Virus record (IMG/VR): IMGVR_UViG_3300031673_000039
Location: 1-61,707 of that record
Source of the DNA: a virus
Strand: one strand, 5' to 3'
DNA length: 61,707 bases
The position numbers were made by a program, and so were the translations under genes. This document shows positions 1 through 36,300 of this stretch, in pieces; within the stretch, counting starts at the first letter, position 1; each line of letters opens with the position of its first letter. Under the pieces are notes generated by a model, which searched no databases, was not told the origin of the DNA, and saw only the letters and a program-made list of their open reading frames with translations.

Positions 1-427
1 TTGGCGCCGGCAAGGTAGGCACTGATAAGGTAGGCACTGACAAGGTTGGCGCCGGCAAGGTTGGCACCGTCAAGGTTGGCGCCGGCAAGGTAGGCACCGT
101 CAAGGTTGGCATGGACAAGGTTGGCACTGACAAGGCTGGCGCCGGCAAGGTTGGCATGGTCAAGGTTGGCACCGTCAAGGCTGGCGCCGGCAAGGTTGGC
201 ACTGACAAGGCTGGCACGGTCAAGGTTGGCACCGTCAAGGTTGGCACGGTCAAGGTTGGCACGGTCAAGGTTGGCGCCGGCAAGGTAGGCACTGATAAGG
301 TAGGCACTGACAAGGTTGGCGCCGGCAAGGTTGGCACCGTCAAGGTTGGCGCCGGCAAGGTAGGCACCGTCAAGGTTGGCGCCGGCAAGGTAGGCGCCGG
401 CAAGGTAGGCGCCGGCAAGGTTGGCAT
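1..427 (-). repeat. 15-nt tandem repeat array (coding part of the pentapeptide-repeat gene), continues at 61575..61707
   Basis: Units such as ggcgccggcaaggtt, ggcaccgtcaaggtt and ggcactgacaaggta are repeated head to tail. When circularised, 61601-61632 plus 1-110 is an exact 142-nt copy of 239-380. Confidence 0.9.
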
Positions 428-530
428 GGTCTTTAACCCCAGCCTCCAAAGTAATCTTTACGCTATTTTCTTCGGCTTCGTGCGAAAAAAGTACCGCGCC
501 GTCAAACCTTGCTTTAATCTCGATTTTCAT
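1..530 (-). CDS. Pentapeptide-repeat protein, N-terminal part (gene crosses the window junction; C-terminal part at 61350..61707)
   Basis: Minus-strand ATG at 528-530 behind an [45 protein letters not shown] is followed by tandem A(N/Y/S)LxGA-type pentapeptides ([25 protein letters not shown]). The frame runs off nt 1 and closes in phase with 61350..61707 once the 75-nt overlap is merged (813 nt, 270 aa). Confidence 0.8.
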
Positions 531-622
531 AATTCCCTCTTGGTTGTTTAGTCGTGCGGTGAATCTGTAAAGCCATTAGTGAGTGTGGCCGGATTATTCT
601 GGTACCGATTGGAGCAGTTCTT

Positions 623-913
623 TTATTTCTTATCTCCATATGTTTCAATTCTGGCTACCAGGGCCATGCCGGTGTCTTTGTCAATCAGGGGTTCTTCGTT
701 CAGGATGGTAATCAGGTTGGCCTCCTGGTGCCACTGCAGTTTCTGGGCAAGATGTTCTGCTTCCCGTGCTTCCTCGCGCTGGTCGATGACTGCGACGATT
801 GTGTATGCGGTCAGGATTACAGTAGCGAGCATGATGGTGCTGCCGAGGGCGCGCCAGTTGCGGCGGTAGAGATTGTATCTACGCCATGGCTTGCGGAGTT
901 TGGTGGGTTTCAT
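623..913 (-). CDS. Small membrane-anchored hypothetical protein (96 aa)
   Basis: ATG at 911-913 with an AAGGAA RBS. One hydrophobic helix (ALGSTIMLATVILTAYTIVAVI). Confidence 0.6.
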   Translation of the reverse strand: MKPTKLRKPWRRYNLYRRNWRALGSTIMLATVILTAYTIVAVIDQREEAREAEHLAQKLQWHQEANLITILNEEPLIDKDTGMALVARIETYGDKK

Positions 914-945
914 GGTTAGGTTCCTTAATCTGATGAATGATTAAA

Positions 946-3306
946 TTACTTCACGGCCTTTAATTTAGTCTTGCTGGGGAACTTGCTGACCATGTATGCG
1001 CGGTCGTTGTCGGTGATGTTCCAGTTAATCTCTAAGCCGCGGAAGACTTCTTCGCCGTTGCGGATGACCTTGATGTCTAGTCCATGGTGGCGCAGCATCT
1101 TGCTGAACTTGTAAGCGCCGTCCGGTGCTGAGCCTGTGCAGTGTTTAAAGACACAGTGCAGCTCGTCACGAGTGAATTTGTTTTGCTTTTCATATAGGAT
1201 ACGTTTGAGGATGTCTACATACATGCTGGCGGTGTAGCTGCCGCCATTAGCTTGTTCATGCATGGTGGCTGCATCCGGTAGGGCGTCCAGCAGGGTGCCG
1301 AAGTCTCCTTCTTTAAGTGCGTTAGCGGTGGCGTCCAGGCTGGTGATGCCCAGGTGCTGGATGGCGGTGCGCTCTTCTGTCTGCAGGATGGTTCGTGCTG
1401 CTTCTGCGTTGGTAGCGCGGTGTTGTAGATGATGGGCAAAGGCGCTGAGTTCTTTGTCTGAGCCTATGGCGGTGACGACTTTCTCTGAGGGGAGGTAGCG
1501 CTCGGTCTGGTAGCTGCCGACGTTGTAGCGTCGGTCACCGACAGGAATGTGTACGGGCTGGTTCTTGTTGCTGGCGAAGATAAAGCCCGTGAAATTGTTG
1601 ACCATGTAGGCATCGGTACGCATGCGGCGGATGGTGATACTGGGTTCGGTGATTAGGTTCCGCATGTCGCTTTCGATGCCCTTGGCATTGGTGAACATGT
1701 CGGCGTCGATCTCGTCGACGAAGACGATCAGGGCATTTTCCATCCAGCCGTTGAACTTTTCGTTGAATTCAGAGGCACGCATGGCATGTACGTGCTTGCG
1801 TCCGAAGAGGGGCATGAGCACTTTGTTGATCAGCATGCCCTTCCCAGTCCCATACGTCCCATGAAGTATCCATGCGGTCTGAGGTTTCTGCCTGGTCTGG
1901 AACATGTAGGCCAGCCAGTCCAGGAAGGCTGCTTGTACTTCCTTGGTACCTACCGCGCTATCGAGGAGTTCCTGAATGTTAGGGAAAGGAGCACTGCGCT
2001 GGTTGTCTTCGTGCATGTAGTGGCTGGGCGTGAAGGTGTTGATGATGTGGTCAACAGGGTCATACACTGTGGGGTTGAGCGGGTCGAACTTGAGTTGCCA
2101 CTCGGGGACGAAATCACCTAATGGTCTTCCGTGGCCCTTGAGGAAGTCTTCGATCTGAACTCGGTTCTTGGCGCGGTGGATCTCAAGGTGCTTGCTCCCT
2201 TCATTCCAGGTACCTTTATAGTAGTCCCCCGTGGCTTTGTCGCAGAAGGCGAGTAGAGTGTCGCCGGTTTCATTGGGTGTGGTGTTGGCCGAGCTGGCTG
2301 CGTGCATGCGTTCGGCGTAGTAGCGGGGGAGGATGTCTTTGATGTAGGGGAATGCCTCACCCTTGAAGTTGTGGAGTAGTTTCAGATTACCGCGTGGGTG
2401 GAAGTAGCCCTTGCTGTTACCGCCATTCAGATTGAAATAAATGAAGTCACTGAGGCCATCGTCGAAGACTTCATAGTGGGTGATTTCGCCTACCCCGCGT
2501 TGGGTTTCATGTTCGCCGTCCATGGTAGTTTTGATGTTGAGTTTGTCCATCCCTGCTGCGATGCGCAGGTTGTTGACGATAGTCCGAGCTTCTTTTTTCA
2601 GAGTGTCTAGTGGGCGTAGGACAATCTTGGTTACATCCAGGGTGAGTTGCACCTTGGGTACCAGTTGTACGCGCTCACTGGGGGGAATAGGGCTCTTCAT
2701 GTTATTGAAGATGGGTTCAGCGATATAGATCAGTTTGTCGTTCTGGCATACGGTGATGTCCAGTGGCCAGTGTAGGGCGTGGCCGGCAGGTGCTAAGGTA
2801 AGTGTATCCTTGAGCACGGTGATGGTGAGGTTGAGGTGCATTAGCCAGGCCTTGAGTTCAGGTGCTGGTCGTGGACTGCTTAACCATACAAAGATGTGGC
2901 AGGATAGAGTTTTGTCTTTGGGATCGAGCTTATAACTGCTGCTGTATTGCACGACATAGGCTACATGGTCCATGCCTATGGATTTCATGAATTCATCGGG
3001 GTTGTTGAATTGTGCACGATCCAGATCGAAGCAGATGAAGTGTGTGGTTGTTTCGGTGCGTGTGGCGCCGGCGCGGGATTCATCGTTCAGCTTGCGTTCG
3101 AGTTTGCCCTTGAGCAAGCAGGGTTTAGCTGCCGTCATGGACTGGGCTTTGATGTGTTTGAACAGATCGTTGAGGTTGTTGGCCTTCAGGTTCAGGCTGG
3201 TGAAGTTTTTGCGGTGGGGGTAGGCTTCTTTATGGAGACTACCGTCTTTGAGTTTTGTTATTGTTTTTGTCAACGGGGCATCCGTCGATAGGAATGTCAG
3301 GTCCAT
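946..3306 (-). CDS. Bifunctional primase-polymerase (AEP-like N-terminus) / SF3 D5-P4-type helicase
   Basis: 786-aa ORF. DxD motif FICFDLDR and downstream SCHIFVW resemble archaeo-eukaryotic primases. Walker A GTYGTGKG and Walker B VFVDEID resemble SF3 helicases. Confidence 0.8.
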   Translation of the reverse strand: MDLTFLSTDAPLTKTITKLKDGSLHKEAYPHRKNFTSLNLKANNLNDLFKHIKAQSMTAAKPCLLKGKLERKLNDESRAGATRTETTTHFICFDLDRAQFNNPDEFMKSIGMDHVAYVVQYSSSYKLDPKDKTLSCHIFVWLSSPRPAPELKAWLMHLNLTITVLKDTLTLAPAGHALHWPLDITVCQNDKLIYIAEPIFNNMKSPIPPSERVQLVPKVQLTLDVTKIVLRPLDTLKKEARTIVNNLRIAAGMDKLNIKTTMDGEHETQRGVGEITHYEVFDDGLSDFIYFNLNGGNSKGYFHPRGNLKLLHNFKGEAFPYIKDILPRYYAERMHAASSANTTPNETGDTLLAFCDKATGDYYKGTWNEGSKHLEIHRAKNRVQIEDFLKGHGRPLGDFVPEWQLKFDPLNPTVYDPVDHIINTFTPSHYMHEDNQRSAPFPNIQELLDSAVGTKEVQAAFLDWLAYMFQTRQKPQTAWILHGTYGTGKGMLINKVLMPLFGRKHVHAMRASEFNEKFNGWMENALIVFVDEIDADMFTNAKGIESDMRNLITEPSITIRRMRTDAYMVNNFTGFIFASNKNQPVHIPVGDRRYNVGSYQTERYLPSEKVVTAIGSDKELSAFAHHLQHRATNAEAARTILQTEERTAIQHLGITSLDATANALKEGDFGTLLDALPDAATMHEQANGGSYTASMYVDILKRILYEKQNKFTRDELHCVFKHCTGSAPDGAYKFSKMLRHHGLDIKVIRNGEEVFRGLEINWNITDNDRAYMVSKFPSKTKLKAVK

Positions 3307-3342
3307 GGGTTCACCTCGGTAACTCTGGGATGCTCTGAGCTG

Positions 3343-3364
3343 AATCGCACAGATTGTGAAAGAG
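3343..3364 (-). promoter_or_regulatory. Copy of the recurrent CTCTnnCACAATCTG motif, about 40 nt upstream of the primase-helicase start
   Basis: The minus strand reads CTCTTTCACAATCTGTGCGATT. By hand alignment it matches the best plus-strand copy (19899-19920) at 16 of 22 positions. Confidence 0.4.
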
Positions 3365-3840
3365 TGTACGCTTGAATAATTAATGTGTGAAGATGTGTGC
3401 TAGATGAATATTTGGTGATGCTGAATACTGAAACATTTTGTATTGAACAGATAAACAATCTGTTTGTGAATAGTAAACAGATTGTGCAAAAACAGGGGTG
3501 TTTAAAAAGCTCAAAAAGACTCGATGTTTCACATTTTAGAAGATGTATTTAAGACTCCACTTAAAATGATATTGGGTGACTGTTTTACTCGGGTATTATG
3601 TTACGAATTAAAGTGTCACATTTGGTCAAAGTGAAACAGAAAGTGAAACAGGCTATGAAGTCAATGTTTACAGGGGTTGGATGGTTATTTATATACTAAA
3701 TGTTACACTGTTACAGATTTTTAGGTCTACTTTGTACTGTAACTATTACTAATAATAAATATATAGCTGTATATATAGGTTGAAGTTTTAAAATGTGTAA
3801 CAGGTGTAACTTTTTCGTCCCATAGTTTCTTGCGGATGTT

Positions 3841-3871
3841 AAAAATGACCACCGCGATGAACTGCGATGGT
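3841..3871 (-). terminator. Rho-independent terminator candidate after gene 3880..4872
   Basis: Minus strand: ACCAUCGC-AGUUCAU-GCGGUGGU hairpin (one G-U pair) followed by CAUUUUU. Confidence 0.55.
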
Positions 3872-3879
3872 CGTGTTGG

Positions 3880-4872
3880 TTAACTGAAATGAGTTGTGGT
3901 GCATGCCCCCGGTGCCATGTTTTGTTTCTGCAACGATTGGCCGGGGACTTTCAACGCTTGTGCTTCTTGCCATGCCTGGAACTTTGTGAAGGTATCGAAT
4001 TGTGCCGCCATGTTATGCGCAGGCTGAGTAGGTTGAATGTCTTCGATGACTTCGTCAGGAACGACGGCTTCTTCTGGAACGACACCGCCGAGTGCAACGA
4101 TGGCTTTCTCGATGAACGTCATGTCGCCTTCGGCTTCGAGACGCTGCTCGATGTCAGTGCGCCATGACAAGGTCTGACCGATCTTGATGCGACGCGTGAT
4201 CAGTTTCGCGATGCAGCGCTTGAGCAAGTTCTCGATGATGCGCTCGTCGATTGGCCCTTCGATTGGATCGAGACCTTCCAAAAACTGGACAGCGTACTCG
4301 CCCTTGGCCACGAAGCGCGCCATGGATTCCACCGCACGCGTAGTTTCCTGCGTGACGTAGTCGGCCATGGTCTGGCCATAGTTCTTCAGGCCGAGACGCT
4401 TGTTGTTGATGTACGTCCGCTTGTAGAGCATCGGGTCGATGACCTGCTGCGTCTCCATGAACTTGAGCGTGTTGAACAAAGTGCGCTCTTCGCCCTGCTC
4501 CATGCCGGCAGTGAGTTCCTCGTTCATGTCGAGCAAGTCCTGCCGCAGGTCGAGCAGCGCCTGAAGGTTGCGACGCGCCTCGTAGTAGTTGCCCGGCGTG
4601 GTCTCCACATCGTGACGCGAGGTCAAGCCCGCTTTGTCGCCGCGATCCGTGCCGTCGCCGAGATGGTTGCTGGCGTACTCGATGTCGAGCTTGAGATTGC
4701 GTTCCTCGTTCAGGAACAGCTCGATGGATTCATGAGTGGGATTGTCCGGGATGAGTTTCATCGCGCCGCGAATCGCTTCGGCGGTGACCACGTACTGCAT
4801 GCTGCCAAGGCAGGAGAGTTGCGAGTACAGGTCAACGGATTGGATGGTGCTGAGGATGGTGTGCTTATTCAT
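3880..4872 (-). CDS. Hypothetical protein (330 aa)
   Basis: Long ORF. The ATG at 4870-4872 sits 5 nt after AAGGAG. The track start (TTG at 4887) lacks an RBS. No motif recognised. Confidence 0.75.
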   Translation of the reverse strand: MNKHTILSTIQSVDLYSQLSCLGSMQYVVTAEAIRGAMKLIPDNPTHESIELFLNEERNLKLDIEYASNHLGDGTDRGDKAGLTSRHDVETTPGNYYEARRNLQALLDLRQDLLDMNEELTAGMEQGEERTLFNTLKFMETQQVIDPMLYKRTYINNKRLGLKNYGQTMADYVTQETTRAVESMARFVAKGEYAVQFLEGLDPIEGPIDERIIENLLKRCIAKLITRRIKIGQTLSWRTDIEQRLEAEGDMTFIEKAIVALGGVVPEEAVVPDEVIEDIQPTQPAHNMAAQFDTFTKFQAWQEAQALKVPGQSLQKQNMAPGACTTTHFS

Positions 4873-6981: not shown

Positions 6982-7201
6982 CGTAACTGAGCTTGACTTC
7001 AGACTTCCAGAAGTCCGTGACGCGAAACATGAGGACTACGAGTTTCGTGCTGACGGTGAGCTTGTTAGAAAAGACCGGTGGGAAACGGCCATTCGCCGTA
7101 TCGTGAGTGAGCTAGGGTTGAACCCTCGCCATTTCGAGATTAACGAGGTCAGTGATTGCGTCTGTAGGCTCAACTCCGATGATCGTTCCCGCCTTGTCTG
7201 A
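6965..7201 (+). CDS. Hypothetical protein (78 aa) between terS and terL
   Basis: GTG at 6965, 6 nt after GAAGGAG. Overlaps the terS end and the annotated terL start. Confidence 0.45.
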   Translation: MSLTRDVTELDFRLPEVRDAKHEDYEFRADGELVRKDRWETAIRRIVSELGLNPRHFEINEVSDCVCRLNSDDRSRLV

Positions 7202-10200
7202 CACGAGCTTCACCCTCTGCCCAGCCTGCGAAACTGAGCGCACGACAGCCTCTTTCGTCGGCGAAGTGTGCAACTTCTGCTACGACAAAGGTAAAACCGC
7301 CCCTGTTTCGGAGCCAGAAACCCCTCCAGGGCCGGCCAGGAAGCCCCGTCGCAAGGTCGGCGTCTCTCCGCAGGCGCCAACACCGCCCCAAGCGCCGGCA
7401 AACGCCTCGGAAGAGCCCTACACCGCCCCGCAGTTCGACGACAAACAGGCCAAAGCCAACCCCCAGGCCGAGCTGGCCAACCGAACCCTCGCTCGACGCC
7501 GCTTGCTACCCTTCATTCAACGCTTTCGACCGAAATACGACGCGGGTTGGGTCCACAAGGACATCTGCCGACGGCTGGAGCGGTTCAAGCGCGACGTAGA
7601 GCTTGGAAAGGAACCTCGACTCTTGTTGATGACACCTCCGAGACTTGGAAAGTCAGAAATTGGCAGTCGGCACTTCGCCCCGTGGGTGCTAGGGGATCAC
7701 CCCGACTGGGAAATCATCGCCGCCAGCCACACAACGTCCCTCTCGCTGAGCTTCTCGCGCTATATTCGCGACCTGTTGCGTGACCCGGCCTACCACGCCG
7801 TGTTCCCTCTATGCGTGCTCGATCCGAACAGTCAGTCGACGGAGAACTGGAACCTGACAGCCGGCGGAGGCTACCTTGCAGCAGGCGTGGGCTCGGCCAT
7901 CACAGGTAGGGGCGCGCATATCCTTGTTTTAGATGACTTAATCAAAGACATAGAGGCGAGTGATTCTCAGTCCCAGCGCGATAGTATCTGGGAGTGGTAC
8001 ATCTCCACCGCTCACTCGCGCCTCGCCCCCGGCGGCGGCGTGCTGGGAATTATGACCAGCTGGTCGGAAGACGACTGGGCAGGGCGCATTCAGAGTGTGA
8101 TGGCCGGCGGGGAGGGCGACCAGTTCGAGATCGTCCGCTACCCGGCGATCAACGAGGTCGGCGACGAGTACATCCTGGCCGACGACAGCATCGTTGAGAT
8201 ACCCGCAGGCGCACCGGTGCCCGCCGACGCTGTCATGACTCGTCCGCACAACTCCGCCCTGCACGAAGCGCGCTACACCCTGCAGGCGCTGCTCAGGAAG
8301 AAGGCGAACTACATCGCCTCCGGATTGAAGCGGATGTGGGACTCGCTCTACCAGCAGAATCCTACGCCGGACGAGGGTATCTACTTCAGCAAGGACATGT
8401 TCCGCTACTACGTGCACGCCCCTCACGCTAGGCACCGCTTCATCTATCAGGCATGGGACTTCGCCATCACCGAGGGCGCGCAGAACGACTGGACGGTTGG
8501 GGTGACGATCCTGCAGGACGAGAACGACAATCTGTTCGTGCTCGACGTCCTCCGGTTCCGCAGCGCAGATGGAAACATGATCGTCGACACCATGCTCGAC
8601 TACTACGAGCAGTGGTGCACCAAGGACGTCGGGTCCTCACTGCTGGGTGTTGAGGACGGGCAGATATGGAAGACGCTCAAGTCCCAGTTCACCAAGCGCT
8701 GCGAGGAACGTCGCATGTACCCGGCCTACGAGACCCTGGTGCCGCTGACCGACAAGATGGTGCGCGCGAACCCGTTGAAAGGGCGGATGCAGCTCGGCAA
8801 GGTCTACTACCCCAAGGAAGCCAGCTGGTTTCCGACGTACCAGCGCGAATTGCTGAGGTTCCCGGCAGGGAAGCACGATGATTGCTTTTCTGACGACACT
8901 ATGGTAGACTGCCCTCTCAGAGCTGTGAGAATGGGCTCGCTGAAGGACGGGGACGAGGTGCTTACTTACGACGGAACCAACGTTATTGTTGGGATTGTCA
9001 GTGACTATCACTGCACAGGGGTAAAACTGTTGCTGGAGGTGGTGCTAGACGACGGCACTATTTTGGAAATCACTCCTGCGCACCCCGTACTCACTTCAAC
9101 GGGGTATGTCTACGCGGGCGATTTAACCAGCGCCAGCCAAATAGTGAGGAAGAACTTATGCAAATTCAGAGATACGGCCTTAAGTGGGGGAAAAAAGGGA
9201 GGGGTTATTACCAGTCCACAACAACCGTCGATGGTAAACGTCTGTGGCTCCATCAGTACGCCTATGCTCGCATTTACGGGGAACAACCTGTGGGCGCTCA
9301 TATCCACCACAAAGACGATAATAAAGATAATAACGAACTGGATAACTTACAGTGCCTCTCAGCTAAAGAACATGCTGGTGAACACTCAGAATCAAGGTGT
9401 GCTCACGGTAGAACTTCAGAGCAACTACTGCACCTCGAGAATATCCGAAGCAAGGCTGCCGCTGCGAAAGCCGGCGCTTACACCAGCCCTAGAAGGCTGC
9501 GAAAAGGTGTTGCACGCAGTCGAACATGCCCCGAGTGCAAGAAAGAATTTACTCTTAAACTTCGCGATAACGACGCTACGATTTATTGCTCACAAAAGTG
9601 CCGTTGCAAGCAAACTAACAAGCACAGTGACGACGTTTATTCGACGCCTATTAAGTGCGAGTATTGCAGCACAGAATTCATCCCCGGCCCCCACGGTGTC
9701 GGGCATAGTTTGTTCTGCTCCGAGAGCTGCCGAGATAAAAAGCGATACGCAGAGAAACATATTTCGCGAAAGTGCAAGTGTTGCGGGGCAACAATGCGGC
9801 TCGCAAAAGGGAACGCCTCAAGCTACTGTCAAACTTGCCGAGAAACAGGCGCCGACAAACACAAGCGCGAATGTTCGGCCTGCGGGCGAGAGGTTCTTTC
9901 CCGCCTACCTAATGGCTCCGTATTCTGCAATAGAAAATGTGCTAACAACGCCCGAAGACTTACGAGTAACCCAGCACGCCACGAGCGATACCGACAGGCT
10001 ATTCGTGAAGGTCGTCTCAGCCCGGAGGACCGGGTTCCAACCGACATATAACTTCGACGTGGCGGGGACGCGAAATTTCCTGATCCACGGCGGGGTGGTC
10101 GTGCATAACTGCATAGACGCCACAGCCTGGGCCGTGCGCCTTACGCTGTCCCGCTCGGCGCCGAAGCTCCCGCAGCCCAAGGAGCTAAAGAGCTGGCGCG

Positions 10201-10250
10201 ACAAGCTGAAGAACCTGGGGCGCGGGGATGGCGGCCACATGTCGGCGTAG
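7152..10250 (+). CDS. terL: Terminase large subunit precursor with an in-frame intein (exteins 7152..8882 and 10110..10250)
   Basis: Walker A MTPPRLGKSE and Walker B ILVLDDLIKD. Nuclease region FIYQAWDFAITEG and GKHDD/CIDATAWA. N-terminal CPAC...CNFC zinc ribbon plus a Pro-rich linker. The exact start is uncertain (GTG 7152 or ATG 7179). Confidence 0.9.
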   Translation: MIASVGSTPMIVPALSDTSFTLCPACETERTTASFVGEVCNFCYDKGKTAPVSEPETPPGPARKPRRKVGVSPQAPTPPQAPANASEEPYTAPQFDDKQAKANPQAELANRTLARRRLLPFIQRFRPKYDAGWVHKDICRRLERFKRDVELGKEPRLLLMTPPRLGKSEIGSRHFAPWVLGDHPDWEIIAASHTTSLSLSFSRYIRDLLRDPAYHAVFPLCVLDPNSQSTENWNLTAGGGYLAAGVGSAITGRGAHILVLDDLIKDIEASDSQSQRDSIWEWYISTAHSRLAPGGGVLGIMTSWSEDDWAGRIQSVMAGGEGDQFEIVRYPAINEVGDEYILADDSIVEIPAGAPVPADAVMTRPHNSALHEARYTLQALLRKKANYIASGLKRMWDSLYQQNPTPDEGIYFSKDMFRYYVHAPHARHRFIYQAWDFAITEGAQNDWTVGVTILQDENDNLFVLDVLRFRSADGNMIVDTMLDYYEQWCTKDVGSSLLGVEDGQIWKTLKSQFTKRCEERRMYPAYETLVPLTDKMVRANPLKGRMQLGKVYYPKEASWFPTYQRELLRFPAGKHDDCFSDDTMVDCPLRAVRMGSLKDGDEVLTYDGTNVIVGIVSDYHCTGVKLLLEVVLDDGTILEITPAHPVLTSTGYVYAGDLTSASQIVRKNLCKFRDTALSGGKKGGVITSPQQPSMVNVCGSISTPMLAFTGNNLWALISTTKTIIKIITNWITYSASQLKNMLVNTQNQGVLTVELQSNYCTSRISEARLPLRKPALTPALEGCEKVLHAVEHAPSARKNLLLNFAITTLRFIAHKSAVASKLTSTVTTFIRRLLSASIAAQNSSPAPTVSGIVCSAPRAAEIKSDTQRNIFRESASVAGQQCGSQKGTPQATVKLAEKQAPTNTSANVRPAGERFFPAYLMAPYSAIENVLTTPEDLRVTQHATSDTDRLFVKVVSARRTGFQPTYNFDVAGTRNFLIHGGVVVHNCIDATAWAVRLTLSRSAPKLPQPKELKSWRDKLKNLGRGDGGHMSA
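8883..10109 (+). mobile_element. Class-1 intein (409 codons) inserted in the terL nuclease motif
   Basis: Begins with Cys (CFSDDTMV). Block B is ITPAHPVL. The C-terminal end is YNFDVAGTRNFLIHGGVVVHN followed by the +1 Cys. It is in frame with terL at both junctions. Confidence 0.85.
9158..10051 (+). CDS. HNH endonuclease with four zinc-ribbon repeats, nested in the intein in the +2 frame relative to terL
   Basis: GAGGAAG-N5-ATG. HNH motif HIHHKDDNKDNNELDNLQCLSAKEH. Four CxxC...[YF]C[SQN]xxC[RA] units. 297 aa. Confidence 0.8.
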   Translation: MQIQRYGLKWGKKGRGYYQSTTTVDGKRLWLHQYAYARIYGEQPVGAHIHHKDDNKDNNELDNLQCLSAKEHAGEHSESRCAHGRTSEQLLHLENIRSKAAAAKAGAYTSPRRLRKGVARSRTCPECKKEFTLKLRDNDATIYCSQKCRCKQTNKHSDDVYSTPIKCEYCSTEFIPGPHGVGHSLFCSESCRDKKRYAEKHISRKCKCCGATMRLAKGNASSYCQTCRETGADKHKRECSACGREVLSRLPNGSVFCNRKCANNARRLTSNPARHERYRQAIREGRLSPEDRVPTDI

Positions 10251-10660: not shown

Positions 10661-10878
10661 TGAGAACACTCCTGATTGATGCTATCAACGGTGTAGGCAT
10701 TCCAACGATGGAGATGGCCGTCGCCTATACAAAACAGGGGACGGCCCGCTTTACCGGGAATCAGCACAACCCTGACTGGGCGTGGGCGCAGGATTATCTG
10801 CGCAGCGCCGACGAACCCACCCTTCAGGCCCTCTATGAAACTCTTCGCACAACCCGCGATGAAATGAGGGACAGCTAA
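10657..10878 (+). CDS. Hypothetical protein (73 aa)
   Basis: ORF with ATGA overlap upstream and TAATG overlap with the portal gene. Confidence 0.6.
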   Translation: MMRTLLIDAINGVGIPTMEMAVAYTKQGTARFTGNQHNPDWAWAQDYLRSADEPTLQALYETLRTTRDEMRDS

Positions 10879-13010
10879 TGCCGATTAACGACGCAGCCGC
10901 CTATGCGCAGTGGGTGAGGTACCAGTATTGTAGAGACCGTGGGCACCTGGCATTCCTTGAGAAAGCCTACCGTTGCGACGAGTTCACCATCGGCAACCAG
11001 TGGGAACTCAAGGACCTCAACGCACTGACCCTGCAGCGCCGCCCCGCCCTGACCATCAACAAGATTCTCTCCACGCTCTCCACCATCCTCGGCGAGCAGA
11101 TCAACAACCGTAGTGAAATCCTGTACCGCCCGGCAAACGGGTCCGAACCAGATACCGCCGAGGCGTTGACCAAGGTGTGGATGCAGATCGCCCAGAACAA
11201 CCAGATGCCGTGGGTGCGCTCCGAGCTGTTCGCGGACGGACTGATCCGCTCTCGAGGCTTCGTCGACATTCGCCTCGACTTCACCGACAGCATGAAGGGC
11301 GAGGTGCGGATCGAGAACCTGAACTCGAAGAATGTGATGATCGACCCGGATGCCGAGGAGTATGACCCCGACAAGTGGATGGATGTGATAACCACCAAGT
11401 GGATGACCCCGCAGGATGTGGCCATCCTGTACTCCGAGGAAGACGCGGAGTACCTGAAGAACAAGGAAGGCAGTTCCTTCATATACGGCTACGACAGCAT
11501 CGAGCGGGTGCGCGACCGCTTCTCAGGGCCGCTACCCATCGCCAGCTACCTCGGCCCTCCCGAGCAGGACGGCGTGCGCAGGAACATCCGCGTGCTCGAC
11601 CGCCAGTACCGCAAGCTCGACAAGCAGCTGCACTTCGTCGACGTGAAAACCGGGGATATGAGGCCCATCCCGAACGCCTGGGACAGGAACAAGATCGCAT
11701 CGGTGCTCGAGAAGAGCCAAGGGAGCCTCTCCACGACGAAGAAGCTGGTCAAGCGTGTGCGCTGGTGTGTCACCGCAGACAACGTACTGCTGCACGACGA
11801 CTGGAGCCCCTACAAACACTTCACCGTGGTGCCGTACTTCCCATTCTTCCGCTATGGCAAGACGGTGGGCGTGGTGGAGAACCTGCTCGGCAGCCAGGAA
11901 CTGCTGAACAAGGTCTCCAGCCAGGAACTACACGTGGTCAACACCACCGCGAACAGCGGGTGGAAGATCAAGAAAGGCACCCTGAAGAACATGTCCATCG
12001 AGGAGCTCGAGCAGAATGGCGCCTCCACAGGGCTGGTGCTTGAGCTGGACGACATCAGCAACGCCGAGAAGATCACCCCGAACGCTACCCCGCAAGGTCT
12101 CGACCGCATCAGCTACAAGGCCGAGGAGCACATCAAGACCATCAGCGCGGTGAGCGACAGCATGCAGGGCTTCGACCGCGAGGACGTCGCCGCGAAGGCC
12201 ATCGCCTACAAACAGCAGCGGGGGGCGGCGGGCATGTCGAAAACCCTCGACAACCTCGAGCGCACGGACTGGATGATCGCCCGCAACGTGCTCGACATCG
12301 TGCAGGAGTTCTACACCGAAGAGCGCCTGGTCACGAGCATCAAGGGGGATGCCTCCCACGAGACCGACGAGGTCACGGTGAACCAGTACGACGAGGTGAC
12401 GGGGGAGATCGTCAACGACCTGACCATGGGCGAGTACGAGATCATCGTCACTTCGACCCCGGCCAGGGCGACGATGGAGGACAGCCAGTTCGAGCAGATT
12501 ATGGCAATGCGCGAGGCGGGGATGAACATACCCGAGCACTTTGCCATCGAGGCCAGCCGCCTGCAGCGCAAGGCGGACATGATCAAGGAAATGGCCGGCA
12601 ATCAGGACTCGCCGGAAGCCCAGCGAGACGCCGCCCTCAAGGCGCGCGCCGCCGAGGCTGCCGTAGTGAAGCTGGAGGCCGAGGCCATGGACAAGCAGGC
12701 CAGCGCGAAGCTGCGCATGGCCCAGGTCGAAAAGACCCTCGCCGAGGCACAGGCCACCGAAGCCGAGATCGGCGCAGGCGACGGCATCGACCCGGCAGCC
12801 GAGCAGCAGGCGCAGACGCAGGATCGAGAGTTCGCGCTGAAGGAAGACGAGCACGCGCACAAGAAAGACCTCGCCGAGCGGGAGTTCGCCCTCAAGGCAG
12901 ACGCCCACGAACACCAGAAACAGCTGGCAGAGCGGAAACAACAAGAGAACGCAGACGCCACAAGAGCGGCCGCGTTCGCACAAGCAGCACAACCCACCAA
13001 AGGAGAATAA
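10878..13010 (+). CDS. Portal protein
   Basis: 710 aa, between terL and scaffold/capsid. C-terminal Ala/Glu/Gln-rich coiled-coil tail resembles the barrels of podovirus portals. Confidence 0.75.
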   Translation: MPINDAAAYAQWVRYQYCRDRGHLAFLEKAYRCDEFTIGNQWELKDLNALTLQRRPALTINKILSTLSTILGEQINNRSEILYRPANGSEPDTAEALTKVWMQIAQNNQMPWVRSELFADGLIRSRGFVDIRLDFTDSMKGEVRIENLNSKNVMIDPDAEEYDPDKWMDVITTKWMTPQDVAILYSEEDAEYLKNKEGSSFIYGYDSIERVRDRFSGPLPIASYLGPPEQDGVRRNIRVLDRQYRKLDKQLHFVDVKTGDMRPIPNAWDRNKIASVLEKSQGSLSTTKKLVKRVRWCVTADNVLLHDDWSPYKHFTVVPYFPFFRYGKTVGVVENLLGSQELLNKVSSQELHVVNTTANSGWKIKKGTLKNMSIEELEQNGASTGLVLELDDISNAEKITPNATPQGLDRISYKAEEHIKTISAVSDSMQGFDREDVAAKAIAYKQQRGAAGMSKTLDNLERTDWMIARNVLDIVQEFYTEERLVTSIKGDASHETDEVTVNQYDEVTGEIVNDLTMGEYEIIVTSTPARATMEDSQFEQIMAMREAGMNIPEHFAIEASRLQRKADMIKEMAGNQDSPEAQRDAALKARAAEAAVVKLEAEAMDKQASAKLRMAQVEKTLAEAQATEAEIGAGDGIDPAAEQQAQTQDREFALKEDEHAHKKDLAEREFALKADAHEHQKQLAERKQQENADATRAAAFAQAAQPTKGE

Positions 13011-30340: not shown

Positions 30341-33300
30341 ATGGCTGGACTTCGCGACGTTCTCGACCCCACTCAACCTCGTAAACTCTCGCCAATACTT
30401 CGGGGAATATATGAGGCCCCTGTGCTGGCCGAGCCTATTCAACAGGTCGCCCTTGAAAACACCGGCGACTTCGGACGAGGTCTACGTAGCGCTGCGACCG
30501 GCGCAGTCGGCTCCGTGCAGCGCTATGTCGGGGCAAATGAGGCGGCCCGTGAGAACCAGCTCGAAGCACAGCAGTGGGCGCCGGAAATTCAGACCACCGA
30601 CCAGGTCGACGGCTTCGGCACAGGCATCCGCTACGTGGCCGGCAAGCTCGGCGAAGCGGCAGGTTCCATCCCCATTGCCCTAGCCGGCGGCGTCGGTGGC
30701 AGACTGCTCGCGGGCACGAAAGGCGCCTACCTCGGTGCCACAGCAGCCTACCAGCCGGTCATGGCAGGTGGCCACATGCAGGACTTGGATGCAAACCCGA
30801 ATACCGCAGGCATGAGCGAGACGGATAAGCGCATCCGTGCCACCGGCATCGGCGCTGCCCAGGCAGTCGTCGAAGGGGCAGGCCCTGCCTGGGCAATCAA
30901 CCGCTTCGCCAAGCCCACCGCGTTGCTCAAGCCCGGCTTCGGCGAAGCTGTCAAGCGCGCAGGTGGCGTGCTAGCCACGGACGCAGCTCTTGAAGGCGCG
31001 GGCGCGGCGGCCTCTGACGTGATGGGCCAGGGCAGCATCATGCAGCTCGACCCGACGACGCGTTACAACCCCCGCCAGACATTCGAAGCGGGCGTCGGCG
31101 AAGCCGTCGGCGGCGCAGGCATGGGCACAGTTCACGCGCCGCTGACCGTAGCGCACGACTACATGGACGCGGGGGCGCGGGGCGCAGCAGACCTTGCCGT
31201 GCGCGGCGCAAAGGCCTCTCCCGGCGTGATAGAAGACGCGCTCAGCGCAGGGAAAGCGGGGGTCGATGCTGCTACAAAAGGTTTCGAGAATCCCTTCCGT
31301 ACGTCCGCCGACTTCCGCGCCAAGCACCCCGAGATGGACGGCTTAGTGAACCCTCCACCGATACCCGACTCGTTCACGACTGCGCCGCAAGCGGCGCAGG
31401 TAGCCTTCATGGACAACTACGAGGCTACGCAGAATACGGCGGCGCGAACCGTCGCCCAGCGCATCCTGGCTGACGAGTATGCCTCGAACGCCGACAAACA
31501 CGCTGCTCAGTCTATGCTGGAGAGCTCAGACCCGCAGGCGTGGGAAACTTTCAGCAAAGGCGTGGTGTTCCGTCAGAAGAAGGATCAGACAGCTGCCTCT
31601 CTCGGGCAAGCCGCCTCGGTCATGCGCAAGCAGTTTGAGGCGCTGCAGGGGAAGATCAAGGGCAAGCTCGACGACCTCGGGGCCAAGGCAGACCTCGCAG
31701 GCATCAAGCACAACCTCGAGCGGACGCAGCAGGACATCGACTTCGAAGCCGCCATGGCGCCGACGTTGAAGACCGTCCATGCGCTGGGCGGCGAGGCTGA
31801 CGTGGCCGGCCCGACGATTGACATCCTCAAGCGCTTCGTGCTGTCGCGCTACGGCAAGGACGCTCAGCCGGACGGCTTTGCAGACATCCCTGACGCGCTG
31901 ATTCGTGTCTACGGCGACAGCACGCCGGGGCTGGCCGCTAAGGCATTCGACTCATTGCGGCGACTAGGTATGACCCCGGGCTACGAGTCGAACGCAGTGG
32001 AGAATCTCACCGCCGAGGTGGCCCAAGCTGTGAAGCTGCGCACTTCCCACTACAAAGCGGTGGAAGACGTTATCCGCGATAATCTTGTGCCGAGCAAGCT
32101 GGACACGATGCGTGATGACACTGTGCCCGACCTGGCCGACATGATCTCGCGCTACCTTGATAAAGGCGGGCGCGACGAACGTGTTGAGGGCGTGCTCGAT
32201 GAGCACTTCGGCGTGCATAAGGACATGATCCTCGAGAAGATCGACGCGCTGCGAGGCGACCACAGCCCCGGCGTGGCTCGCTACGGCGTAGACAAGGCCG
32301 CTACCGAGTACGGCGACGAAGGGTTCGGCAACGACAAGGCTGTAGATGAGAACCCCTTCGAGAGTCCCACGACCGAGGTCGAAGCGGGTGTGAACTACCA
32401 CATGGGTGACGGCGGCAGAGCGTTCGACAAGACCTCCCCCTACTACGCCGATAACGTCCAGCGCGCGCAGGGCAAGCTGACTGACGGCAGCCAGGCGACG
32501 ACCTACGACGCGAAGGCGGGTGGGGACGTCGTCCGCCACGATATGATCAGCGTTGGTCAGCATGCCCGTGATAGTGGTGACAACACCGTGATGAACGATC
32601 TGATGGATGAGCACGGGCTGAATGAGAAACAGGTCAACGAGCGCTTCCAGGTAATGCGCACGCGCGACAAGATGCCCGACGAGGCCGAGCCTGTCGAGGT
32701 ACGTGCCCCTGAGCTGGCCGAGCCGGTGAGCAAGAACGGCAAGAACAACCCTCGCAGCTGGGGTGACGTGACAAGCACCCGCAAGATGGTGAACGGCAAG
32801 GCCGTGACCACCGACACTTCCACGATTGCTCACGGGCGCATCTTCCTGTCCAAGAAGAGTTCGGACTTGGTGAAGAGCGCAGGCGACGAGACGCTGCCCA
32901 AGCAGTTCGTCACCTCGGCGCAGAAGCTCATCGGCAAGATGCTGGAGCGCAAGACTGCCGGGGCCTTCGACGAGCGCACCGCCGAGATGACCGGGCCGCA
33001 GCAGAAACTCGCCCTGTTCGCAGTAGGGTTGACCTCGCTGCTGAACTCGGGCAAGTTCCACGATGAGGTACACATCAAGATGCCTGATGGCGCGATGAAG
33101 GCTGTCGATCTTTCCCATCTGGCCAAGATTCCGAAACCCGAAGAAGTACGAAATGGGATGAGTCGCGACGAGAGGGCTGCTGTTGAGAAGCGCAACATCG
33201 ACGCTTGGCGCGCAGCTGTGGAACGTAACTCTGCAGAGCTTAAGTCTAGCCTGAAGAGCCTGCCCGACGACTTCGTGCTGTACCAGGGCAAGGACTTCAA

Positions 33301-36300
33301 GGTCACGATGAAGGATGCGCTGGGCACGACTGACAAAGCGACACGGGCCGAGAAACAGAAGAAGGTCTGGAAGGACAAAGAAACCGGCAAAGAGGTCGCG
33401 CCGAAGTCACCGAACGAGAAGTTCGAGGTCAGCGATATCCCCACCATGACCCGTGATGAGTTGCGGGCTGAGTACGCGGCGACGAAGAAGAGCCTGGGCA
33501 GCGTGGAGAAGCAGCGCGCCAAGCTGGCTGAAGATAGTCCTGAGCGCGAGAAGCTGGCGGGCATCCGCGACGGGCTGCAGGCGAAGCTCGATGCGTTTGA
33601 AGAGGCCGGCAAGGAGATTGTGTACACGGGTAAGACAGACAAGAACGGCGACAGAATCCTGGCAAAATTTAAGGAGGGGGATCGTACCCCTGCCCCCGAA
33701 GGGTCAGCTACGCGCCGCCGCGAACAACGTGCTGGTATTGACGTTGGTACGGAGAAGAAAGAAACCGCTGGCGACGTGGGGCCGCGTACAGAAGGTGGCG
33801 GCCGCACTGAGCACCACGGTATCGGCGAGTCCGAAGAAATGGCCGCCAGCGCTCAGAAAGAACACGGCAACGAAGTGCGCGACTTCGACGAAGCGACGGG
33901 CGAGGTGAAACACAATATCCAGACTCTTCGCGCCACATCTGAAGCCAGAAAAGACACCGGGCGTGCCGAGCGCCATGCTGTACAGGACGCTTTGCCGAAG
34001 AGCAGGGCGCAGGAAGCTGGGGCACGCGTGGGGCCTGTAGGTCGCACAGACCAAGGCTCTGCCCAAGACCTCCACAGTAACCCCGGCGGACTGACTTTGG
34101 CCACACTACTTGGCCGCGCTGGAGGATTCCGCATAGTCGAAGGGCTCAAAGTTCAGCTGAACAAAGATGGCGCCGTGGCTGAGATTACCTGGGGGAATAT
34201 GCCCTACACATCTAAACGGTTCATTGACAAATTTGGTAGCGACATATTACTCGCAGCCCAACGAGCGGCGCAGGCCAAGGCCCTCGGGGAGAGTCCAAAG
34301 TTGACTGACATTCAGGTGGTAATGCGCCTGGGAAAGTCTGACGGCATGGCCGGTGCAGTCGGCGTGAAGCACAACATGGAGTCGACCGGAGAAGAACCCA
34401 CCAGTGCAAGCACCAAGGAAGGTCAAGCCGCTCTGCGGGAAGAGCTTACCCACCTCCTAGGTAAGGATGTGAGCCTGCTGTTCCGCGAGAAAGGGGTGCT
34501 CTCGGGGTCGGCAGAATGGACGAATAACCCTGAGACGCAGGTATCGTTAATCGAGATCGCCGTCAACGCCCTCGACCCGATGTCCAAGCTCTACCACGAG
34601 TCCATGCATGAGTTCTTCCAGCGCGCGCTCGACGACAAGAACTTGGGAGGCATTCACGAGACCCTGCGCAAGGCTGCCAGCAGCGAGCTTGTGCTGCGGC
34701 AAATGCAGCGCCACTTCGCCGCTGAGCCTGAAGTCAAGGCCCAGCTCGAGTCAGACCCTACCGAGCGAGTGGCCTACATGTTCCAGCTCTGGGCGGCGGG
34801 CAAGCTGCACGTTGGCCCACAGACCGAGACCGTGTTCCGCAAGCTGATCAACATGGTCAAGAAAGTCCTCGGCATGATGACCTCCGACCAGAAGGCGCTG
34901 GAGATCATGGAGCAGTTCGCCTCGGGCAACATGTCCGACCGCGGGGCGATGGCGCGAGTGCTCAATACTCAGGAGGCTCGCGGTGCGTATCTACGCAAAG
35001 TCGGCGCGGTCATGAAGCCGGTGGTCGAGCGCGGCGCGGAGATCGTCGGCTTTGCCGAGAACATCCTGGCCGATAGCGGCAACCCCGCGCTGATCCGCGT
35101 CGGCAAGCAGTTCAACAACAAGACCGGCTCGCAGGGCGACAAGCAGGGGCTGCTTTCGGCGGAGGCGCAGGCGCAGAACAAGTACATGAACGAGTTCGCC
35201 AAGGCGCTGCGCCACGGCGACAAGGAGGATGTGCGCCTTGCCATGGAGGGCCTGCAGAAGAAAGAGGACCATGCTGACCCTATCGTGCGCAAGATACAGG
35301 ACGACGTGAAGGCCGTGTTCAAGCGCATGTACACTTACATGGCCGACGCAGGTGTCATGCGCTGGGACGAGAAGGCCGGCGATAAAGGCGAATGGGTGCC
35401 GGTCGGGAAGATCGACGACTACCGCCTGCCGGTATCGTGGGACGCGTCGAAGATCATCGCCCACAGCGAGAAGTTCAAGGCACTGCTGTTCGAGCATCAC
35501 GCCAAAGAACTTGATGCGATAGCCAAGACCGCCAACAAGGAGGTAGCCGACAGGCAGGGCGCAGGTCAGTACACCGCAAGCCAGGAGAAGCTGGCGAACC
35601 CGGATGGTGTGGCCCTCACTGCCGACAACATCGCCGACGCGCTGATCAAGCGCTTGATCAGCACCAATGGTCAGGTCGAACTGAAGGAGTCGTCGAATGC
35701 ACTGGGGTTCAGTCCATTCATGAAGTCGGTCAACGAGCGCAGCCTGGACTGGATCAATCAGTCGGTGTTCCACGAGTTCCAGGAAAAGGACATGGCGAAA
35801 ATACTCTCTACCTATGTCGGTCAGGCGACCAAACGCGCTGAGTACAGCCGGCGCTTCGGCCCTGATGGCGGCAAGCTGCAGGACGAGATGAACACCGCGT
35901 GGGAACACGAGATCGACAAGATCATGAAGGAGAAGTACAAGGTCGATGGTGCGGTGGCTACAGCAAAAGTAGCTAACGCCACAGAGTGGGAGGCCGCGCT
36001 GGGTAAACTCGCTGAAGGCGTTGACAGCAAAGCTGTTACCACCCAGGCAGCGAAGCGGCTCGAACCCGCCCGGCGTGCGGTCATGGCCATGGAGGGCACG
36101 CTCGGGCACGACATCAGTCCGCTAGCGCGCAAGGTCAACGCCTACAGCATCGTCTACCAGAACATGCGCCTGCTGGGCTACTCCATGTTCTCCAACCTCA
36201 TCGACCCGCTCGGCATCGTGGTGCGTGGGGGTGAATTCAAGGACGCCTACGCCACCTTCAAGAGGGGCATGCGCGACGTGGGTCGTGAGTGGGGGACACT

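Follow-up and report, generated by a model that had tools for sequence, protein, structure and literature searches.

The DNA analysed here is a stretch of 61,707 nucleotides from a virus (IMG/VR record IMGVR_UViG_3300031673_000039, positions 1 to 61,707), referred to below as the window. On its plus strand it carries a gene for the terminase large subunit (terL) that is interrupted by an intein, and inside the intein lies an HNH endonuclease gene read in another frame. The terL precursor is one open reading frame (ORF) of 1032 aa (7152-10250) that matches Pfam Terminase_6N (E 4e-11) and has its Pfam Hint/intein matches in the C-terminal third. The ORF and the comparison with intein-less TerL divide it into three parts: an N-extein (7152-8882) ending in FPAGKHDD, the Asp motif of the nuclease domain; an intein of 409 codons, or 1227 nt, running from Cys1 to His-Asn (8883-10109); and a C-extein (10110-10250, stop codon included) that begins CIDATAWA and whose first residue is the +1 Cys. 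Intein-less relatives read FPAGKHDD and then I/Q-VD. Without 8883-10109 the terL product has 623 aa, as has the TerL of Pseudomonas phage KPP25, and the two proteins are 41% identical over 533 aligned columns (query residues ~102-623, E 2e-115). The alignment is free of gaps at the junction, where FPAGKHDD and CIDATAWA of the window stand opposite FPVGRHDD and IVDALAWM of KPP25.

The residues of a class-1 intein are all present in the window (C1, T-P-A-H, H-N and C+1). The N-terminal splicing domain (Hint-N, ~92 aa, 8883-9157) includes block A, CFSDDTMV, at the intein start (8883-8906), block B, ITPAHPVL, with the TxxH motif (9069-9092), and GYVYAGDLT (9102-9128). The C-terminal splicing domain (Hint-C, ~41-42 aa, 9987-10109) includes the block F/G stretch TYNFDVAGTRNF (10044-10079) and ends in GGVVVHN (10089-10109), with the Cys following at 10110. 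Ten diverged homologues all share C1, H67, H136 and N137, and T64 is close to invariant among them. For a splicing profile, ten diverged homologues were stripped of their middle part so that the N-terminal (~92 aa) and C-terminal (~42 aa) halves were left; this profile covers solved mini-inteins end to end (Spl DnaX, E 3.7e-18; DnaB, 2e-17; Mtu RecA, 1e-14; Npu DnaE, 1e-13), and TIGR01443 (intein_Cterm) exceeds its cut-off on the mini-intein construct. These results support the identification of 8883-10109 as a class-1 intein of the Hint fold, as the initial annotation had proposed, and the intact catalytic residues and the essentiality of TerL suggest that it splices. Between the Hint halves the terL frame runs through a spacer of 276 codons (9159-9986), stop-free and without protein conservation, which would be translated inside the intein. 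This spacer is rich in Ala, Thr, Ser and Leu, has no match to any Pfam family, and is probably disordered, a view based on its lack of conservation rather than on structure. A comparison of the 409-aa intein-frame protein with 5.8 billion proteins returned no match at E <= 1e-3, likely because gene callers record the HNH ORF over the overlapping terL and because the contigs are short.

The HNH gene (9158-10051) encodes 297 aa in the +2 frame relative to terL and occupies the site where inteins normally carry their nuclease. Its product matches Pfam HNH_3 with E 8e-12 (45 bits against a gathering score of 24.8). The catalytic core spans aa 30-73, HIHHKDDNKDNNELDNLQCLSAKEH (9245-9376), and is followed by four CxxC...Cx2-3C zinc-ribbon modules (aa 124-148, 167-191, 206-227 and 239-261; 9527-9940) with a weak Pfam zf-FCS match, presumably a DNA-recognition array. 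In the HNH alignment H50, H51, D53, N58, N59, N63, H72 and H76 are invariant, as are the Cys ligands of the first three of the four zinc ribbons. A word-index search found six full-length homologues of 296-298 aa each with 52-62% identity, plus two more distant ones. When the search was made exhaustive with HMMER, 2223 homologues were obtained, and the top 150 are 95-424 aa long; the family consists mainly of free-standing HNH_3 and zinc-ribbon proteins of 200-300 aa that align from residue 1. An AlphaFold2 model made with the alignment has a mean pLDDT of 78 and a pTM of 0.32 and resembles beads on a string. Foldseek returned no PDB structure at E <= 1e-3 for this model, and its weak, non-significant matches were tandem zinc-finger DNA binders and I-PpoI (E 0.79). 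The sequence search of the PDB likewise gave non-significant matches alone, among them I-HmuI (E 0.55).

The gene has its own start signals, as the initial annotation had noticed. A Shine-Dalgarno (SD) sequence, GAGGAAG (9146-9152), lies 5 nt upstream of the ATG at a place where the terL frame reads V-R-K. Its core AGGA, 7-8 nt upstream of the start, is invariant in eight close homologues, and the AGG that serves as an Arg codon in the terL frame is always AGG. The start codon is ATG in seven of the eight and GTG in the homologue L011; across the wider set of loci it is ATG nearly everywhere, with GTG in L011 and L024. Neither a sigma-70-like promoter nor an intrinsic terminator was found within the element, and the RNA around the HNH start is not unusually stable (z 0.4) and shows no conserved structure (consensus energy ~0). 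Since the start signals are conserved, and internal promoters, terminators and conserved RNA structure were not found, internal initiation on the terL mRNA is the simplest reading of how the HNH protein would be translated.

Over the 894 nt of the HNH gene the terL frame contains no stop codon, while the third frame contains 23. The initial annotation had set this open frame against roughly 14 stops expected by chance. That figure is right for base composition alone (13.7), but it is the wrong null, because synonymous shuffles that keep the HNH protein and its codon usage yield 3.6 stops for the window; the absence of stops nevertheless remains significant (P(0) = 0.006-0.007), and together with the homologues it becomes decisive. 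Each contiguous homologue also has 0 stops in the terL frame (the +1 frame when counted from the HNH), against 2.6-5.9 expected by the shuffles, with P(0) from 0.03 down to <0.0005. In the relatives in which terL is split (L009, L014 and L017), on the other hand, this frame carries 15, 14 and 10 stops, at the level of the shuffles (14.5, 12.4 and 8.6). Stop avoidance is therefore confined to the forms that need read-through, which bears out the earlier proposal that selection keeps the host frame open. The number of stops expected by the shuffles at matched GC is itself 2-3 times lower in the contiguous than in the split forms, which suggests that the HNH amino-acid sequence has become adapted to avoid stops. 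At the other frame offset 9-49 stops were observed. Because this offset is full of stops for a protein rich in Lys, Glu, Asp, Asn and Arg, only one offset is evolvable, and this is the plain explanation of the constant +1 offset.

Selection on the two frames was compared in a codon alignment of the eight close homologues. Over the spacer region the pairwise differences at HNH codon positions 1, 2 and 3 are 0.37, 0.34 and 0.56, and the amino-acid identities are 0.52 (HNH frame), 0.33 (terL frame) and 0.31 (third, non-coding frame). Since the identity in the terL frame matches that in the non-coding frame, the spacer is kept open and nothing more, with the HNH frame under purifying selection. 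The situation differs at the 3' end, where the C-terminal splicing domain shares the stretch 9987-10051 with the last ~21 HNH codons. All three codon positions are conserved here (differences 0.28, 0.11 and 0.26), and identity reaches 0.72 (HNH frame) and 0.67 (terL frame). The overlap of about 20 codons described in the initial annotation thus holds, and its claim of dual coding has to be narrowed: dual coding at the amino-acid level is confined to these ~21 codons, the other ~276 being only stop-free in the terL frame.

The same arrangement recurs in other loci. In the six close relatives L001-L006 (HNH 52-62% identical) the frame +1 from the HNH is open from the start of the contig, across the HNH gene, to ...VVHN followed by Cys and the terL C-extein. 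IMG/VR yielded twelve further loci, and in eight of its contigs with GC contents of 0.30-0.59 (L011, L012, L013, L015, L016, L019, L020 and L021) a terL ORF of 800-1200 aa is free of stops across the HNH. The overprinted layout with the identical frame offset is also present in a cultured phage, Acinetobacter phage vB_AbaM_Highwayman (L024, OZ038341.1 8646-15203). Its terL, annotated as 760 aa, contains a contiguous intein (...YIDA before the first Cys, ...LVHN before the last), and the out-of-frame HNH of ~215 aa with a GTG start is unannotated. In a scan of 80 metagenome loci with HNH relatives, the +1 frame had 0 stops in 32 and the +2 frame in 1. In at least 21 of the 80 loci Hint-N ends just 5' of the HNH, and Hint-C ends in HN (or SN or GN) followed by Cys over the HNH 3' end. 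The layout was found in ~27 metagenome loci beyond the seven diverged close homologues and the eight IMG/VR contigs, and in more than 40 independent assemblies overall. When ten metagenome host ORFs were scanned, five matched terL models (Terminase_6 or Terminase_3), one (L109) matched a terminase small-subunit-like model alone and four matched intein/Hint models alone; insertion was into the nuclease motif or, for two of the sites, into the ATPase domain.

Other forms of the same pair exist as well. L009, L014 and L017/L018 are split relatives: a stop codon closes their terL frame where the HNH begins or a little further downstream, and a new ORF beginning at a Met inside the HNH 3' end codes for Hint-C and the C-extein. 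One of these is a cultured virus, Vibrio phage 1.238.A (L014; the same locus is L023, NC_055735.1 1827-10531), in which terL is naturally split: gp11 is the N-terminal part of TerL plus Hint-N (RefSeq 'terminase large subunit'), gp12 is Hint-C plus the C-extein ('hedgehog/hint domain protein'), and an unannotated HNH gene of 236 aa lies between them and overlaps both. This phage presumably depends on trans-splicing of its terminase. In L064 and L103 a related HNH core stands in the canonical position, in frame between Hint-N and Hint-C, and in L042 Hint-N and the HNH are joined in one frame that then ends in a stop. The family of this nuclease hence includes in-frame, overprinted, fused-split and free-split forms.

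A few loci deviate from these forms. The terL intein of L022 (3237-5264) contains an HNH of 165 aa at the other offset (host frame at HNH +2), and its host frame has 0 stops where 8 would be expected. An independent origin or a shift by an indel may lie behind this. L010 (1-859) is an AT-rich distant homologue in which the gene caller read a TAG at position 64 as Gln (code 15). An ATGA overlap with the HNH start places a TGA in its terL frame, which then runs on for ~800 nt with 0 stops where 5 would be expected; recoding, a split of very recent date or an error in the reads (coverage 1.35x) could account for this. Several terL genes have two or three inteins (L032 at 2-4093, L011, L012, L014, L020 and L061). 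Three sets of Hint matches were found in L032, and in L014 and L020 the P-loop region of terL contains a large extra insert with intein-like junctions (...THN followed by T/S).

The distribution and the composition of the element were compared with those of its host gene. The site is empty, reading KHDD and then I/Q-VD, in six IMG/VR relatives with N-extein identities of 76, 72, 72, 64, 58 and 49%, and in KPP25 at 42%. It is occupied in L011, whose extein identity is 59%. The empty alleles have Ile or Gln at +1 instead of Cys. The GC content of the intein is 0.516, compared with 0.612 and 0.681 for the exteins, and its GC3 is 0.50 compared with 0.78, in agreement with the AT-richness seen in the initial annotation. 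Sporadic occupancy and foreign composition together support a mobile element that would have come from an AT-richer donor. IMG/VR contained 0 matches to a degenerate DNA pattern designed for the junction GKHDDCID without the intein, and a single-protein query of genome contigs revealed no prophage relative. As for the origin, we favour the possibility that a free-standing nuclease gene invaded the intein or replaced its nuclease; origin by frameshift is a less likely possibility. The initial annotation had described the element as a possible intermediate between a mini-intein and a free-standing homing-endonuclease gene. This description does not fit a layout that is stable and widely spread rather than fleeting, and such a layout had already been described in principle in the literature.

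From these results we consider it likely that the window holds a mobile terL intein with a separate, overprinted HNH gene, the two being expressed from a bicistronic layout. Ribosomes translating terL would read through the whole insert and produce the N-extein, Hint-N (92 aa), the unconstrained spacer of ~276 aa, Hint-C (~41 aa) and the C-extein. The Hint halves would then associate into one fold and carry out splicing along the standard class-1 pathway (Cys1, TxxH, His-Asn, Cys+1), releasing the 623-aa TerL. Other ribosomes would start on the same mRNA at the internal SD and ATG (9146-9160) and read the +2 frame to yield the separate 297-aa HNH_3 nuclease. This nuclease is presumed to cut intein-less terL alleles of co-infecting phages, and repair would copy the intein and the nuclease gene together (homing). 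Because TerL is essential and any stop in its frame would be lethal, the terL frame would stay open while its amino-acid sequence drifts.

Several observations weigh against this reading and should be taken into account. On its own, the window sequence falls under the curated cut-offs of Pfam Intein_splicing (32.6 bits against 35.8, E 9e-8) and TIGR01445 (20.9 against 24.5). A single-sequence AlphaFold2 model of the intein has a pLDDT of 34 even over the Hint parts and gives no information on the spacer. The intein and the HNH are no more alike between lineages than the exteins are, and the sampled genomes give no direct indication of very recent transfer among them. The homologous loci were located via the HNH, and the fraction of occupied sites is therefore biased. 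Finally, splicing, a separate HNH product and cleavage of the empty allele are predictions from sequence alone.

Four other explanations were weighed against a mobile intein with an overprinted gene. The HNH protein might have been domesticated as a packaging cofactor, in the manner of HNH proteins that aid some terminases in cos cleavage, and no longer act as a selfish homing nuclease. HK97-like phages have known partnerships between HNH proteins and the terminase, a gene inside terL would be co-expressed with it, and the architecture is old and stable. We nevertheless regard this as improbable, since the closest terL relatives are entirely without the HNH, the element is present at several sites and in several terL families, its composition is foreign to the host genome, and its family of mainly free-standing HNH_3 and zinc-ribbon proteins of 200-300 aa is typical of homing endonuclease genes.

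It is also conceivable that the HNH ORF is a decaying relic and that the insert is now a mini-intein with a junk spacer under vertical inheritance. The nuclease activity is only predicted, and the divergence of the intein and the HNH roughly follows that of the exteins (window compared with L011: extein 59%, HNH 48%). However, the substitutions in the HNH frame are those of a coding gene under purifying selection, and the catalytic His and Asn, the Cys ligands of three zinc ribbons, the length of 296-298 aa and the SD are all kept at ~50% divergence. A relic would have accumulated stops, and the AlphaFold2 model is confident (pLDDT 78); we therefore think it improbable that the gene is in decay.

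Programmed frameshifting, by which the nuclease would be made as a fusion of N-extein, Hint-N and HNH instead of being translated independently, appears very unlikely. The HNH frame of the window is open for 52 codons upstream of the ATG, and L042 has Hint-N and the HNH in one frame; but in most loci the HNH frame is interrupted by a stop 1-24 codons upstream, both the SD and the start codon have been conserved, and the junction is without conserved RNA structure (z 0.4, consensus energy ~0). An assembly or sequencing artefact, in which two compensating indels mask an ordinary in-frame HNH intein of the kind found with a related core in L064 and L103, has a negligible chance of being correct, since the same offset was found in the more than 40 independent assemblies, which come from different projects and assemblers and include a cultured phage genome, the SD and start codon are conserved at the junction, and stop avoidance would be pointless in a frame that was never read; moreover, stops in the terL frame are absent from every contiguous homologue.

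The surroundings of the element add the following. Positions 7152-7450 of the window encode an N-terminal extension of TerL of ~100 aa with a CxxC...CxxC arrangement (LCPACETERTT...VCNFC) and a Pro-rich stretch. The KPP25 TerL is equal in total length, yet its alignment to the spliced TerL begins only at ~residue 102, with the extension outside the aligned part. KPP25 and Aeromonas phage phiA008 are the nearest cultured terL relatives (~42%), and megablast of terL against GenBank phages gave no match. A P22-like portal gene lies at 10878-13010, and an ORF of 2275 aa at 30341-37168 has no Pfam match. Neither tRNA genes nor Rfam families at the gathering score were found in the 61.7-kb window; a group I intron with a homing endonuclease gene was ruled out by this absence of Rfam families and by the uninterrupted host frame.

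In a broader sense, the overprinted layout may be an old and selectively maintained terL intein with an HNH/zinc-ribbon module at the one offset that tolerates read-through. It would have spread over several terL families and insertion sites, would uncouple the nuclease from TerL dosage, and would have been broken repeatedly into split, trans-splicing TerL in viable phages such as Vibrio phage 1.238.A, with the in-frame relatives completing a living series for the gain, loss and exchange of nucleases by inteins and for their splitting. For this wider proposal we see the balance as even. Because one intein-nuclease pair occurs within a single family in split, in-frame and contiguous overprinted form, the models of nuclease gain and splitting put forward by Dassa (2009) and by Gogarten can be tested on real sequences. 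The locus is also a clean natural example for the study of overlapping genes, in which one frame is selected solely for the absence of stops and the split relatives provide a built-in control. Gene annotation is affected too. Metagenome gene callers (L001-L006) kept the HNH ORF and dropped or cut the overlapping terL ORF, while the GenBank and RefSeq records of two cultured phages include terL but have no annotation for the HNH. This is a systematic blind spot, in which one of two overlapping genes is dropped and the HNH family is mostly unannotated, and since one gene is kept and the other lost, terminase trees and checks of phage completeness can be misled. The naturally split terL inteins and the modular nuclease with four zinc ribbons might be of use in protein ligation and genome engineering.

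Overprinted architectures of intein and nuclease have already been published, with other nucleases. Gosselin, Arsenault and Gogarten (bioRxiv 2025) described actinophage inteins, several of them in terL, in which the nuclease is antisense (LAGLIDADG, Vsr-like) or in 'frame 3' (EndoVII-like); HNH is given there as an in-frame type only. Their non-canonical inteins occur in four host proteins including the terminase large subunit, and the authors propose that a free-standing nuclease gene invaded the intein. The EndoVII-like inteins resemble the window in having a same-strand nuclease ORF between the splicing blocks at the same +2 offset, within a stop-free host frame that has no recognisable structure. 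The nucleases differ: that of Keitabear is an EndoVII type of ~130 aa, whereas that of the window is an HNH_3 protein of 297 aa with four zinc ribbons, and its family occurs in AT-rich and GC-rich lineages that are not actinophages. Furthermore, the HNH ORF of the window enters the C-terminal splicing domain by ~21 codons, whereas the actinophage ORFs 'typically lie outside' the splicing domain. A tblastn search with the window HNH found no actinophage at E <= 1e-3; this search and inspection of the Keitabear sequence ruled out that the two nucleases belong to one family.

A cyanobacterial dnaX intein with an out-of-frame LAGLIDADG nuclease was described by Phillips et al. (bioRxiv 10.64898/2026.09.14.751524), in whose account the idea of non-canonical inteins is credited to Gorbalenya (1998). 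That system shares with the window an overlapping nuclease ORF, frame-specific purifying selection, sporadic distribution and a favoured origin by secondary invasion, but it differs in its cellular host gene and in its LAGLIDADG nuclease. The ShiLan-domain insertion in phage methylases (Arsenault et al. 2025, PMC11855218) also hides an out-of-frame HNH inside a stop-free host ORF. It has no splicing domain, no ribosome-binding site was detected and the insert is thought to be retained in the protein, whereas the window has a complete intein and a clear SD. The HNH_3 type of the window thus differs from the nuclease types published out of frame in inteins (EndoVII-like, LAGLIDADG and Vsr-like).

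The split relatives have their counterpart in the fractured genes of Dassa et al. (2009, PMC2677866), in which split inteins flank a free-standing homing endonuclease gene; one of those loci is a terminase. The nucleases there are GIY-YIG or Vsr-like, and it was predicted that HNH could act likewise. As in the window, the nuclease gene occupies the endonuclease site of the intein and its 3' end overlaps the downstream intein part, and the layout is matched exactly by L009, L014 (Vibrio phage 1.238.A) and L017. The terL of the window, unlike those fractured genes, is a single continuous ORF, and its nuclease is an HNH. As far as the literature was searched, the HNH_3/zinc-ribbon family, its breadth, the control for stop avoidance and the co-existence of in-frame, overprinted and split forms are unreported in the papers cited above. 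The canonical in-frame HNH inteins (L064 and L103) have the same Hint scaffold as the window with a related HNH core at the same position; in them the nuclease is a domain of the intein polypeptide, whereas in the window it is predicted to be a separate gene product.

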